64,000 nucleotides of DNA from Octopus vulgaris. Its lineage: Eukaryota. The notes under the pieces are model-generated. The model had not been told where the DNA came from, searched no databases, and was given only the letters and a program-made list of their open reading frames with translations. Shown here piece after piece: positions 935 through 61,431 of this stretch (position 1 is the stretch's first letter; each line of letters begins with the position of its first letter). The stretch lies in NCBI GenBank assembly GCA_951406725.2, contig OX597831.1, positions 55,676,001-55,740,000 on the forward strand, read 5' to 3'. Both the position numbers and the translations under genes were made by a program.

Positions 935-1105
935 ATAAGAATTTTTTGCGTAATAAGATAAAAAACCAAGGCTGTATAGATATTAGAGCATTTATAGATA
1001 GGTCTTACAGCTGTTTCTAGGATATTAATTAATAATATCCTTTCATCGTCTCTAATATCTATACAGCCTTGGTTTTTTTTATCTTATTACGCAAAAAATT
1101 CTTAT
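935..1105. repeat. Inverted repeat (~55 bp arms) enclosing a disrupted hammerhead motif
   Basis: Arms at 935-988 and 1050-1105. The loop on the minus strand reads CGAUGAAAGGAUAUUA..UAAUAUCCUAGAAACAGCUGUAAGACC, and the downstream sequence is homologous to 31231-31298. Confidence 0.8.
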
Positions 1106-1503
1106 ATACACACGCTGACGTAGAACCAACATTTGACGGATATTTGTCCTCAACCGAAACCTCGTGTTAACAACAAACAAGATCAAGGCAAATATACGTC
1201 AAATGTAAATAATGTCAATAATGTACATAATTCCTCATCTCTTAAATATAGAACAGTATTAGAAATATTGTTTACAATGTATTCTGGAGATGTATAACCG
1301 AATATATTAAGAAAAAGACGAGGACTATAGCATTTAAAAAACTATCTTTTCTATTTCATAACTGGATGCCAATGAAATGAAAGTTAACCACCTGGATAAA
1401 AACCAGGTTGAAAGAAAGGAAATCGAGATATTTGTTTACAAGATTTGCATGTTTATCTGGAAATGTGCCAATACTAATGCTCAAGATATATATATATATA
1501 TAT

Positions 1504-2000
1504 AATTTATAAGTAAGGGCAAAAGAAAAAAATTCTAATGCCAAAATATGCCGAAAATAGACACAACGTCAATAACCATGTAATTTATCACTACAAGCAC
1601 GCGTTTCAAAGAAAACCGACAGAAATTTCTTTAAAAATCCCGTTATTACCATATCGGACCCGATTTCAGAGTTAGTTCATAAGAACCTTCAGTGATAAAT
1701 GCGGCAAAGAAATAAGTGAAATACTTATACCCATAAGTTCTTATGAACTAACTCTGAAATCGGGTCCAATATGGTAATAACGGGATTTTTTAGAAATTTC
1801 TGTCGGCTTTCTTCGAAACGCATGCTTGTAGTGATAAATTACATGGTTATTGACGTTATGTCTATTTTCGGCATATTTTGGCATTAGAAATTTTTTCTTT
1901 TGCTCTTACTTATAAATTGTTTATAAATTTAACCTTTAAAGGTATTTTTTAATATGCTGGCCATTGATAGAATTTTTTCCGAAAAATGTTATCCTATATT
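1504..2000. mobile_element. (TA)n-flanked element with ~180 bp inverted arms (Penelope-like pLTR remnant)
   Basis: Arms at 1504-1686 and 1737-1918 with a 50 nt loop. It is the same family as 41868-42298, which has a shorter inverted arm. Confidence 0.75.
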
Positions 2001-2099
2001 AGATGTATATATATATATATATTTCTAATAAATAAATATATATGTATGTGTATGTATATATATATATATATATATATATATATATATATATATATAGCT

Positions 2100-2450
2100 T
2101 CTATGCGGCATAAACGCTATTGGGAAAGACTCATGAGATTAAGACTCTATCCCTTAAAGCGTAGGCGAGAAAGATATGCCATAATATACATCTGGAAGAT
2201 CCTGGAAGGACTTGTACCAAACTTTGGCATCGAGAGTTACACAAATACTAGAACTGGGTGCCACTGCATAGTGCCAAGGACTCCAAATTTGCCATCAAGA
2301 TGTAGGACAAGATACTGCAAGAGCCTGGGCTTCAGAGGTCCACAGCTCTTCAATATCCCCCCGAAGGACCTGAGAGACCTGCATGGGGTGGATGTAGGTG
2401 TTTTCAAAATAAAACTGGACCTCTTACTGTCAAGTGTCCCAGATGAACCA
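2100..2450 (+). mobile_element. LINE 3' fragment (CR1/L2-like C-terminus)
   Basis: YWERL..LRLY.L.RRRERYAIIYIWKILEGLVPN...FRGPQLFN..P..LR...FK.KLD..L..VPDEP is a typical CR1/L2-group ORF2 C-terminus. Confidence 0.7.
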
Positions 2451-2451
2451 G

Positions 2452-58200: not shown

Positions 58201-58400
58201 GTCGCTAGGCCTGGGTATCACCACAGCCTCATAGATGACTCTCTCGGCCTCGCATTGGCCTCCTGCTGGACAGTCATTGTACACCCAACAAGAGCAACTT
58301 GCCTCTCCCCGTGTTTTATAGGTGTTAGCTAATATACTTTTCCTGTTGGGTGCACAACTAAAGAGTGTGCTTCTTTCTCGGAAGTTGTGTGTGTGAGACT

Positions 58401-58669
58401 CTGTCTCCTCCGATTTAGATTCCTAACTACTCCCACATTTTGCGGTGCAGTTTAACCAAAAGCGGGTATCTTATAGTCGTGATTCATATCGAGCCCTTCT
58501 GGATATTAGCGCGCGTCTACGATGAGTCTACGATTTAAAAAAAATTTACCATCATTTTTCCACATTTTTAATGATATTTGCTCGGGTTATATAAGGGAAG
58601 TAACTCTCTAAAACTGCTTATATCGTTATTTCCCTTACAAACCCGAGCAACGCCGGGCGATACTGCTAG
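58401..58669 (+). mobile_element. Second copy of the Helitron-type element, followed by a related 5' end from ~58670
   Basis: Reverse-complement match to 42299-42567, ending CCCGAGCAACGCCGGGCGATACTGCTAG|T. Confidence 0.75.
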
Positions 58670-59574
58670 TATATATATAAAGCTGATGTTGTTTGTGTAT
58701 AGCAGGTTTGGTAGCCTTCAACTAACACTGTCTCCTCCGAGTCTCTGCGGCGCAAGTTGACCAAAATTGAGAGTATGATAGAAGAAGGCCTGCTCTTCCT
58801 TCCGTAGAAGACAAAATTCAAATCGGACCATGTTAACACCAAAAATTTTTTACATCAAAAAGGTGCTTTTTTTCTATGAAAATCCCTATTTTTTACGATC
58901 TTTTGACTTCTGTGGAAATAAAATGTATTTTGTGAGACGTGGGGAGCAAATCTAATATGATTTGTCATTCATTCATACACTTGGCATCCCGTCCGTAATA
59001 CTGCCGCATTAGACGTATGGCAATTTTGTTATTACATTTGAGAGTAATACTGTAGCTCATAGTTGCTAGTTACGTTACACTTTATTTTGCTGTCTATTAA
59101 ACTGTATGTAAGCTGAACAATTGAAATATTCTATCTCAATGAGTCTTGGTGAAATATGATGCTTATTATGCTCTGCTCGGTGTAACCACCATAAATGAGT
59201 TTTACAGGTATCTACACTCATCTGTCTGTGTGGTATTTAAAAAAACAAAAATGAAATAAATAAATATAATAAAATTGAAAAATAAATAAATCAGCAAACA
59301 TCAAGTTCGCAACACTTGTAAATAAGTTTACTCTGGATAATATAAACCACAATAGACTAAACATGCTTTGTTTTTTTAAATCTTACCGAGCCGTTCGCTC
59401 ACTACCACAACTTTCGTTGTTGATGACATTGTTGCTGTTGCTTAGCACCCAGGTCAGCCTTGATGAGCAGACCTAAAATGAAAGGCATTTCGTACTTAAC
59501 CTAACTTCAACTTTAGACATAGAACATCCAGTACTATATCGTCTAATGTAACATTAATTTCTTTAAAATTACAG

Positions 59575-60171
59575 TATTTTTTCTTTATTGCCCACAAGGG
59601 GCTAAACATAGAGGGAACAAACAAGGACAGACAATGGGATTAAGTCGATTACATCGACCCCAGTGCGTAACTGGTACTTTATTTATCGACCCCGAAAGGA
59701 TGAAAGGGAAAGTCGACCTCGGCGGAATTTGAACTCAGAACGTAACGACAGACGAAATATTTATTTATTTACAACCCATAAGGGGCTAAACACCGAGAGG
59801 ACAAACAAGAACAGACAAAGGGATTAAGTCGATTACATCGACCCCAGTGCGTAATTGGTACTTTATTTATCGACCCTGAAAGGATAAAAGACAAAGTCGA
59901 CCTCGGCAGAATTTGAACTCAGAACGTAACGACAGACGAAATACTTATTTATTTACTACCCATAAGGGGCTAAACACCGAGAGGACAAACAAGGACAGAC
60001 TGAGGGATTAAGTCGATTATATCGACCCCAGTGCATAACTGGTACTTATTTAATCGATCCCGAAAGGATGAAAGGCAAAGTCGACCTCGGCAGAATTTGA
60101 ACTCAGAACGTAACGGCAGACGAAATACCGCTAAGCATTTCGCCCGGCATGCTAACGTTTCTGCCAGCTCG
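59575..60171 (-). mobile_element. SINE family A head-to-tail trimer
   Basis: Three units with junctions at ~59760 and ~59945. Confidence 0.88.
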
Positions 60172-61431
60172 TTTCTGACAGTAGGTGGGATCTGAACAAG
60201 ACTTGGTAGCAATCTCTTCAGGCGGTGGAGTGGTAATTTAGAAGCCTCCGAGGTGGTTTGCCGCTAGTTCTCATCTTCAAGTACTTTATAAAAGGCAAGT
60301 AGCACACGAAGTCAATGTTTCTCAAGACTCTAGTCTGCAATTGAAATTACCAGTTACTTTTCATAAAATAAAATATGTATTGACCAAGAATAGCTTAAAT
60401 TTAGAATCCCACCAAAATATAAGAGAAGTGCAATTTCTGTTTAGCTCGGCACAAAGACCGAGTTTTTTTTAAGAATTAGGACGAAATAGAGTTATCATGT
60501 TGTTCATCTCATTTCCAACATGTAAGGATGTGGCAACATGTAAGGATGTGGGTTAAAAAGTTCTCATGGTGGTCGTGCCATTTCCAAAATTATTAGCATT
60601 GTTGTAGCTGTTAAACACGAGGTCATTCTTTTACCTTTTGCTCGTTTCTGTCATTGGACTGTGACCATGCTGGGGCACCACTTTGAAGGATTTAGTGGAC
60701 AAATCGATCCTAGTATTTATTTTTTTGAAATATGTGTTGTGGAAGGATTCCGACTATCCCTCAAATGACTAAAATGTTGGCAGTTCGTGTCGGTAGAAGT
60801 TCACTGTGAGCCTTTGATTATTAATAGAAGTGCGTCGTGCATATAATTCCTCCCTAATCCCTGCTTCGTTTTGTTATATATCTAATACAAAGATATAAAA
60901 GTCTGGTACTTATTTCATTGGTCTCTTTTACAGTTCCCGAACCGCGAAGTTACAAGGACGTAAGCAAACCATCACCGGTTTTCAAGCAGTAAGGGGACAA
61001 GCACAAATACCTACAAACACACGCTCACGCATATAAAACGACGGTCTATTTTCAGTTTCCGTTTACCTAATTTCTCCTTAAGACATTGGGCAGCTCGGGG
61101 CTATAGCAGAAGACACTTGCTCAAAGTGCCGCACTGTGGTTCTGAACCAGAAACCTCGTGGTTACAAGCTAACTTTTTAACCTCACAGTCGTGCTTGTTT
61201 AAAATGTACAATAAAAGGCAGTAGATAGATCATCTGGTACTTAAACTGATATGTGTCTGATAGCGAAAGTGACCGATATGTTTCGGTTTTATTAGACCTC
61301 CTCAGTCATGATATTCTTCTCAGTTGGCAGTAGCACGAGTTAAAAATATATATTGTAATAGAATGTAATGAAGCTGATTATGAATGTAAACAATATTGTT
61401 GAGAGAAAATATTCTAGGAGCTTGTTCTGCA

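Follow-up and report, generated by a model that had tools for sequence, protein, structure and literature searches.

Type I hammerhead motifs at the 3' ends of Penelope-like and retrozyme-like elements in a 64-kb stretch of the Octopus vulgaris genome

Short motifs with the order of a type I hammerhead ribozyme recur throughout a 64,000-nt stretch of the Octopus vulgaris genome (hereafter the window: NCBI GenBank assembly GCA_951406725.2, contig OX597831.1, positions 55,676,001 to 55,740,000 of the forward strand), which lies in a 2.8-Gb assembly of 227 contigs and consists of AT-rich animal DNA, rich in microsatellites and short repeats. Do these motifs belong to real families, and which elements bring them into the genome at such a density? 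The original prediction, made from the letters alone, had described about 15 of them at 17 sites and had attributed them to a very large, multi-family population of non-autonomous retroelements concentrated in TA microsatellites, either remnants of the pseudo-long terminal repeats (pLTRs) of Penelope-like elements (PLEs) or retrozyme-like. Here, we find it very probable that they are type I hammerhead folds, predicted to be self-cleaving, located near the fixed 3' ends of PLEs and of short non-coding elements likely copied by the same enzymes, mostly into (TA)n tracts.

The class is of a known kind, namely Penelope pLTR hammerheads together with retrozyme-like derivatives. Minimal hammerheads in the pLTRs of metazoan PLEs, their extra nucleotide and the dimer model have already been published (Cervera and de la Pena, 2014; PMC4209133), and hammerhead counts obtained with other descriptors amount to ~9,000 in Xenopus and ~4,000 in the coelacanth (PMC4209133), and to more than 6,000 in a coral and 126,247 in the axolotl (PMC7229834). 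A 2026 preprint derives non-LTR retrozymes from PLE pLTRs (10.64898/2026.07.22.740005). What Penelope hammerheads do is still an unsettled matter. Nearly all of these elements have one, although its activity in vitro is weak and insertion in the one reconstituted system can do without it (PMC11167929). What is added here is the scale, the natural core alleles in high-copy families and the anatomy of the insertion ends. As copies numbering in the tens of thousands, parents that are young and intact and the alleles C3-G8, U3-A8, G3-C8, U3.G8 and U6 occur together in one genome, activity can be compared with mobility. For octopus genomics, the motifs are potential RNA-cutting sites of a large class that carries no label; a 2026 annotation of octopus repeats does not use the words "ribozyme" or "hammerhead" in its main text (PMC13282606).

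Hammerhead motifs in the window and in the genome

A type I descriptor (stem I, C(U/C)GANGA, stem II, GAAA, a palindromic or hairpin stem III, UH and stem I') recovered 8 exact-core motifs in the window at a score of 8 or more, against a mean of 0.08 (maximum 1) in 60 local dinucleotide shuffles of 500-nt blocks, which is an enrichment of about 100-fold. When one core mismatch was allowed, the window gave 10 motifs against 0.84 (maximum 3) in 25 shuffles, and a stricter version of the descriptor gave 3 against 0.00-0.08. The shuffled control proposed with the original prediction thus places the motif density far above that of shuffled sequence, and the roughly 15 hammerhead-shaped motifs are real.

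Ten of the 17 sites are intact or nearly intact (3290-, 10884+, 19138+, 30760+, 31199+, 36691+, 42005+, 45323-, 53426- and 54569-) and five are broken copies of real families (1001-, 1155+, 1650-, 54935- and 61280-). The remaining two, 46194- and 50255+, are unverified: a core and a possible stem II are present, no GAAA-stem III was found, and there is no informative relative within the 1.04 Mb of genome DNA examined. The sites that had been listed as good matches held, except that the core given for them, C(U/C)GANGA, does not describe 3290- (GUGAACA) and 45323- (CUGUAGA); among those listed as degenerate or partial, the five broken copies were correctly placed and 30760+ proved to be intact or nearly so. 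The motif at 36691+ falls outside the matches of the descriptor and was recognised by eye. A good hammerhead at 46501- was missing from the earlier list; it is the only hammerhead, a sub-threshold match to HH9, among the 150 of 323 Rfam matches listed for the window, the other matches listed being microsatellite-driven microRNA noise.

The genome was sampled with 76 arbitrary 10-kb blocks at round coordinates on contigs C1-C30 (759,900 bases), in which 26 exact-core motifs were found in 21 blocks, against 0-3 across 8 shuffles. The resulting density of 34 motifs/Mb (Poisson 22-50) corresponds to ~92,000 motifs genome-wide (59,000-136,000), an estimate that counts both arms of inverted pairs and leaves out variant cores, and the window, at 125 motifs/Mb, is ~3-4 times denser than the genome average. 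The very large multi-family population had been rightly foreseen, and its families have hundreds to thousands of copies. Its association with TA microsatellites applies to most motifs (in the blocks, 19 of the 26 have a (TA)5 no more than 250 nt away, compared with 29% of background positions) and does not extend to two families, F8 and F2, the 3' ends of which mostly lack (TA)4.

Of the window families (F1 to F8, with F1b), seven were described from the 20-30 best BLAST matches to the window copy, and the first-look candidate counts, from searches of the same genome, are lower bounds. F1 (10888; at least 3186 candidates) is represented by a minimal hammerhead at 10884..10918(+), with core CCGAUGA, an extra A, a palindromic ACGU and a predicted cut after 10914, inside an element at 10800-11016(+) between TA tracts; by a second hammerhead at 53426..53460(-), with one stem II mismatch, in an element at ~53336-53500 beside (TA)n; and by a related one at 54569..54602(-), with stem III ACAU and one stem III mismatch, in an element at ~54472-54625 ending at (TA)n. 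The minimal hammerhead of F1b (45354; at least 1750) lies at 45323..45358(-), with core C-U-G-U6-N-G-A (A6U) and a predicted cut after 45327, in an element at ~45223-45428(-) between TA tracts which is the 3' end of a Neptune-type Penelope element. F2 (19144; at least 925) has a hammerhead at 19138..19183(+) with a 6-bp stem I, a 10-nt palindromic stem III and a predicted cut after 19177, in an element at ~19096-19556(+) interrupted at 19188-19385 by a miniature inverted-repeat transposable element (MITE); its core is CUGAUGA in 24/24 parsed copies (25 loci). F3 is a two-armed palindrome at 30679..30822 with a hammerhead on each strand (cores 30760+ and 30746-) and has 4 matches in the 760 kb of arbitrary blocks. 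F4 (31203; at least 4386) shows a palindromic ACAGCUGU stem III at 31199..31246(+), a predicted cut after 31242 and an element at ~30946-31297(+) with (TA)n at its end.

For F5 (42020; at least 3767) the hammerhead is at 42014..42074(+), with a unit of ~480 nt and a predicted cut after 42068, and the 5' arm of the element (~41853-42295, +) is inverted. F6 (36703; at least 2270) is a young family with 95-99% identity; its hammerhead at 36700..36813(+), with core CCGAAGA at 36703, GGCC stem II, a stem II loop of ~80 nt, a weak stem I and a predicted cut after 36809, belongs to an element at ~36465-37004(+) that ends in (TA)33. F7 (46501; at least 969), with copies 98-100% identical, carries an extended, HH9-like type I hammerhead at 46449..46519(-), with core U3-U-G-A-C-G8-A9 at 46501 and a predicted cut after 46471, in a single 357-nt unit at ~46296-46655(-). 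The minimal type I hammerhead of F8 (3333; at least 822), at 3290..3340(-), has a 7-bp stem I, a 5-bp stem II, a palindromic AAUAUU stem III, the core G3-U-G-A-A-C8-A9 at 3333-3327 and a predicted cut after 3297, in an element at ~3163-3346; it was recovered again in arbitrary blocks L335 and L350, and its seven matches in 760 kb suggest ~25,000 pieces, arms included.

Seven families have a fixed 3' end ~65-230 nt downstream of the predicted cut. A (TA)4 stands at this end in 27/30 loci of F1, 23/30 of F1b, 18/25 of F4 and 18/25 of F5, and is rarer in F8 (8/30), F7 (9/20) and F2 (7/25); an upstream inverted arm occurs in F5 (15/25), F8 (11/30), F7 (7/20), F4 (6/25) and F2 (5/25) and in none of the F1 and F1b loci. 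Stem III is a palindrome in F1, F1b, F2, F4, F7 and F8, a near-palindrome in F5 and a 4-bp hairpin, not a palindrome, in F3. The extra nucleotide after A9, which had been noticed in several motifs, is a real feature (30/30 loci in F1), present in F1, F1b, F4 and F8 and absent from F2, F5 and F7. The pLTR hammerheads already described (PMC4209133) likewise have the type I order, an extra nucleotide between A9 and 10.1, a palindromic stem III and commonly U17, with U3-A8 as a variant; they too form many families per genome, mostly as solitary copies, and occur in inverted pairs. Those found here differ in density, ~34/Mb (~90,000) against ~9,000 in Xenopus, figures that are only roughly comparable as the descriptors differ, and in the cores G3-C8, U6 and U3.G8, for which the text consulted gave no counterpart, and a frequent U4C.

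Penelope parents and retrozyme-like units

Linked open reading frames (ORFs) with reverse transcriptase (RT) and GIY-YIG endonuclease, which the original prediction had suggested looking for, were found for the F1b lineage. At locus L235, which is 94% identical to the window F1b copy, the upstream sequence encodes a GIY-YIG C-terminus. A search with the endonuclease of a sister copy (L290) gave 17,715 candidates, and 150 of the 150 scored were identical in protein; at 29 of 30 endonuclease loci a hammerhead lies 805-899 nt downstream, in sense, and (TA)n begins 98-111 nt past it in 27 of these 29, the other two continuing into a second unit as tandems. Loci L326, L327 and L329 are tandems with hammerheads ~4.48 kb apart, one per junction, and thus have the partial-tandem layout of such elements, flanked on either side by a pLTR. 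Between the hammerheads of L326 there is a 1214-codon open frame with RVT_1 over the cut-off and with a GIY-YIG domain seen by eye and by tblastn, for which Pfam gave no match; this intact tandem Neptune-type element spans L326:4579-9088 (C8, ~57.975-57.980 Mb). Its family has undergone a very recent burst, as the 17,715 endonuclease candidates and the at least 150 protein-identical copies indicate. The window F1b copy is 77% identical over 190 nt to the L326 pLTR, and F1 is 70-73% identical over 88-129 nt to the sister pLTR. A second Neptune-type family, found with PF01541, comprises 6136 candidates, many with 781-aa frames containing RT and GIY-YIG, and at 14/30 loci its 3' end contains a U3-A8 hammerhead; in the parent at L061, RVT_1 (just under the cut-off) and GIY-YIG were detected. 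A further U3-A8 hammerhead family, distinct from the 781-aa one, was observed at L124, L077, L193 and L336, with core UUGANAA, stem III ACGCGU or ACAUGU and a predicted cut after C.

The pLTR-remnant option is thus borne out for the F1b lineage, whose hammerheads sit in the pLTR of an element with RT and GIY-YIG. The label "non-autonomous" does not suit the many copies that are truncated ends of autonomous elements. Two other arrangements were discarded: the endonuclease beside an F1b copy at L278 is a separate insertion, and the F1b trimers at L241 do not form a retrozyme array, since the TA tracts between copies imply serial insertion.

The L326 and L061 parents have a single ORF with RT followed by a C-terminal GIY-YIG, and their translations contain a CX2-5CxxC linker, a CCHH finger and DKG; in L326 the motifs are DKG, CX4CxxC and two cysteines inside GIY-YIG. 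By these motifs and by likeness, judged by eye, to the Neptune rows of a published comparison (PMC8557442) both parents fit Neptune or Nematis, not Hydra. C-terminal GIY-YIG, GxKF-like and DKG motifs, the CX4CxxC linker, the cysteine pair in GIY-YIG, microsatellite targeting and tandem or inverted copies are common to Neptune/Nematis (PMC8557442) and to the elements described here, the dominant family of which differs in its A6U hammerhead. Hydra-clade PLEs, including Hydra-1_Obim, share the (TA)n targeting, the hammerhead near the 3' end and the octopus host (PMC8557442), but the linked parents have DKG and CX4CxxC and not the DKT and CxCX5C of that clade. Judged by motif, neither parent is of the Hydra type, which combines RWK, DKT and a CxCX5C linker and has no CCHH finger. 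The hammerhead listed for Hydra-1_Obim (PMC8557442) matches by eye none of the window families. Hydra-type Penelope ORF fragments (RWK, DKT) do occur at L010, L022 and L074, with no link to any hammerhead family described here.

The retrozyme-like option is represented by F7 and F5, both with head-to-tail units. In F7 the 3' end repeats the 5' start with a period of 356-357 nt at 8/20 loci, and F5 has a period of 470-481 nt at 9/25 loci; in these 45 loci of 3.2 kb the direct repeats cover only part of a unit, and tblastn gave no match to PLE proteins inside either unit. Compared with 40 shuffles, the predicted circle folds of two copies each gave z scores of -4.9 and -5.0 for F7 and of -3.6 and -3.3 for F5. 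F7 matches Rfam Hammerhead_HH9 with 31.2 bits (E 5.6e-6), below the gathering threshold of 52, and aligns across the full model, including the stem I internal loop and the A-rich loop II. The likely reading of F7 (357 nt) and F5 (480 nt) is that of retrozymes for which circular or multimeric RNA served as template. F7 resembles the metazoan non-LTR retrozymes (PMC7229834) in its 357-nt non-coding unit, GC below 50%, HH9-like hammerhead and stable predicted circle, and F5 in its ~480-nt head-to-tail unit with a type I hammerhead. They differ from them in that the loci examined hold dispersed copies of 1-1.5 units or two-armed copies and not long arrays, that F5 exceeds the range of 170-400 nt and that F7 has U3.G8 (PMC7229834). 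Read contigs for F7 (from three presumed RNA runs and a fourth of unknown type) consisted of fragments, with one loose end returning to the unit start, which was not used as evidence because genomic copies longer than a unit would give the same.

Core alleles, insertion ends and rival explanations

When core positions 3, 6, 7 and 8 were left free, the arbitrary blocks gave 19 matches against 0 in 3 shuffles, and the 3-8 pair is Watson-Crick in 18 of the 19 (14 C-G, 2 U-A and 2 G-C). Over all DNA examined, the majority 3-8 pair of 27 crude motif types, which are not independent lineages (both G-C types are F8), is C-G in 20, U-A in 5 and G-C in 2. The catalytic 3-8 pair shows natural covariation between C-G, U-A and G-C, which speaks for selection on the fold. 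G3 and C8 are found in 24/24 parsed copies of F8 (30 loci), and no other letter reaches 5% at these positions in contigs of runs under three organism labels, a fourth run barely covering them. The core is CUGUAGA in 25/29 parsed copies of F1b and CUGUUGA (U6) in 29/29 of the sister family, so that in this lineage position 6 is U and position 7 is free, with G5, G8, A9 and GAAA fixed; in F7 it is UUGACGA in 19/19 parsed copies (20 loci), a U3.G8 wobble. In homologous F1-type copies, picked by a pattern that fixes the other stems and hence informative for the outer stem I pair alone, this pair is C-G, G-C or A-U in 13/14. The U3-A8 variant has been published (PMC4209133; PMC3088659), A6C is named alongside it (PMC3088659), and A6C hammerheads are weak and Mn2+-preferring, with strongly reduced Mg-dependent rates (PMC7151607). 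C3G/G8C is known as an engineered change that partially rescues cleavage in a lizard PLE (PMC11167929). The literature searched gave no natural hammerhead with G3-C8 or A6U, and an article outside it (Lunse, Weinberg and Breaker, RNA Biol 14:1499) may list them.

The insertion ends were read from 71 copies not chosen by their own family's search, among which related references may count one copy twice. A pile-up of 5' ends at the cut site was sought in these copies and not found: 2 ends are within 3 nt of the cut (one being a MITE junction), about the chance expectation from the 32 within 60 nt, and 51 copies extend upstream of the cut. Families differ in how far they reach. Of the 29 F1b loci that reach -99, 26 stop by -108; F8 copies share almost nothing beyond ~-60 to -70 and no direct sequence beyond ~20 nt upstream of the query (30 loci); in F1 and F4, whose 5' ends are ragged, 500-740 nt of upstream sequence is common to the copies. 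In the tandem parent, the usual 3' end is directly followed by TATATA belonging to the element itself, and in F4 the same occurs a few bases further on.

These ends are consistent with a simple course of events. The endonuclease would nick (TA)n, and the RT would start inside the RNA ~100 nt downstream of the hammerhead, so that even the shortest cDNA carries the ribozyme, which offers a simple reason for the density of solitary motifs; the element-encoded TATATA could let the nicked (TA)n prime by pairing. Since copies do not start at the cut, the template was probably uncut or re-ligated, perhaps re-circularised, RNA and not a cut linear piece, with copies reading through the cut site. The common 210-nt F1b copies may be cDNAs extended to the 5' terminus of an RNA that always begins ~105 nt before the cut, which is probably where transcription of the pLTR starts. 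At the RNA level, folding of the short palindromic stem III would depend on a dimer or on the protein of the element; cleavage is thus likely to be slow and to occur under certain conditions, and the solitary DNA copies are likely, for the most part, by-products without activity. In vitro, the RT of a lizard element starts inside the RNA and hammerhead mutants still insert (PMC11167929); inverted 5'-truncated arms and (TA)n targeting have been described for PLEs (PMC8557442).

A more tentative proposal takes the families as a natural mutational scan of the hammerhead core, in which the G3-C8 family (perhaps 25,000) and the fixed A6U of the most active Penelope family found would be throttled ribozymes, gated by protein, dimer or Mn2+, with uncut RNA copied first and cut later; if it is true, why PLEs keep hammerheads becomes testable with natural alleles. 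It is similarly conceivable, and no better than a minority view, that what maintains the fold is protein binding or the positioning of the RT, that the variant families (A6U, G3-C8 and U3.G8) no longer cut, and that cleavage is incidental to mobility. The fixed U6 in 29/29 parsed copies of the most expanded young family found would agree with this, as would the strongly lowered Mg-dependent rates of A6C in other hammerheads (PMC7151607), the catalytic mutants of the lizard element that lose no insertion in vitro (PMC11167929) and the copies reading through the cut site. Against it, the 3-8 pair, important for catalysis, occurs in three forms that are all Watson-Crick, cleavage of the lizard element is restored in part by C3G/G8C (PMC11167929), and in the U6 lineage position 7 varies freely with G5, G8, A9 and GAAA fixed. 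It is improbable that all short elements are independent non-autonomous families, retrozyme- or SINE-like (short interspersed nuclear elements), propagated via circular RNA and not truncated autonomous ends: the more-than-unit-length head-to-tail copies of F5 and F7, the lack of shared direct upstream sequence in F8 and the sharp 5' boundary of F1b speak for it, but F1b continues into a GIY-YIG gene, F1 and F4 share long upstream sequence with ragged 5' ends, and such motifs are found in the 3' ends of two families that have an ORF themselves. That the motifs are chance matches, produced by repeat DNA rich in AT and in palindromes, hardly comes into consideration. The two unverified sites and the 7.4 matches per 400 kb that relaxed one-mismatch scans yield in shuffled sequence would favour this, but exact-core and generic-core enrichment, family conservation, and fixed position and sense orientation behind an ORF argue the opposite, and for the ten intact sites chance is refuted.

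Several observations weigh against hammerheads at the 3' ends of PLEs and of short elements copied by the same enzymes. No ORF is linked to F2, F3, F4, F5, F6, F7 or F8 in the loci examined, and the PLE RTs beside an F4 copy (L276) and an F7 copy (L277) are separate insertions, parted by TA tracts or other repeats; F1 is tied to an ORF only by its 70-73% similarity to the sister pLTR, and F8 and F2 mostly lack the (TA)n end. The U3.G8 of F7 and the U6 of F1b are expected to lower activity, and the hammerhead is not the lowest-energy monomer fold for several motifs, a calculation set aside as uninformative for dimer-type motifs. Core tallies lean towards the window copy, as the loci are its best BLAST matches, and the -105 boundary is read as a start site solely from the clustering of ends.

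Broken copies and other features of the window

Among the broken copies, an F4-related two-armed palindrome at 935..1100 contains a hammerhead at ~1000-1050(-) without C3 and the 5' strand of stem I, its core (1001-) having been severed at the inversion junction. The site at 1145..1215(+) is the degenerate 3' half of a hammerhead of another family, 5 relatives of which read CUGAWGA-A-GGCUG..CAGCC-GAAA, and a two-armed F5 copy between TA tracts at 1488..2005 has a partly deleted core at ~1690(-). Two old degenerate hammerheads, at 54920..54985(-) and 61265..61325(-), belong to one family; the latter reads CUGAGGA, a short stem II and GAAA, with stem I not conserved. Of the 10 relatives found for this family, the 6 fetched still show the core, the short stem II and GAAA, altered by some substitutions, but no recognisable stem I.

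Directly behind the F2 hammerhead, the MITE at 19188-19385(+) is a terminal-inverted-repeat element with an 8-bp duplication, which we take to be of the hAT-like class, and a similar copy lies at ~55070-55265. Around F2 copies, L134/L139 and L132/L135/L136 have more than 1.4 kb of flank in common, due to segmental or larger-element duplications; the apparent F2 "upstream extensions" of 1.5 kb are such duplicated flanks and were not counted as element. Another TA-embedded element with an inverted 5' arm is present in two copies, at 30347-30587 and 53786-54060, in which the type I descriptor finds no hammerhead; it may be the end of a Penelope type that has no hammerhead, such as Naiad.

Other repeats include a long hairpin at 33100-33390, where a SINE fragment is duplicated in inverted orientation around (TA)27; a SINE-like dominant repeat in head-to-tail partial tandems with a period of ~184 nt (5519-5935, 26180-26590 and 59580-60170); a repeat with a terminal (CTAT)n, similar to the 3' end of a long interspersed nuclear element, in two near-identical copies (~4190-4620 and 47270-47640); and a degenerate sequence, mariner-type transposase-like by eye, at ~61600-62580(+). 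An intron-free ORF of 358 aa at 27164-28240(-) contains an Octopine_DH domain (PF02317, E 1e-12) and may be one exon or a retrocopy; like the SINE-type repeats, it gives the window an octopus-like character. Finally, an intron-free, frameshifted ankyrin-repeat sequence with Pfam Ank matches extends over ~11080-12480(+), interrupted by an inserted SINE; it presumably resembles a processed pseudogene of a protein phosphatase 1 (PP1) regulatory subunit.

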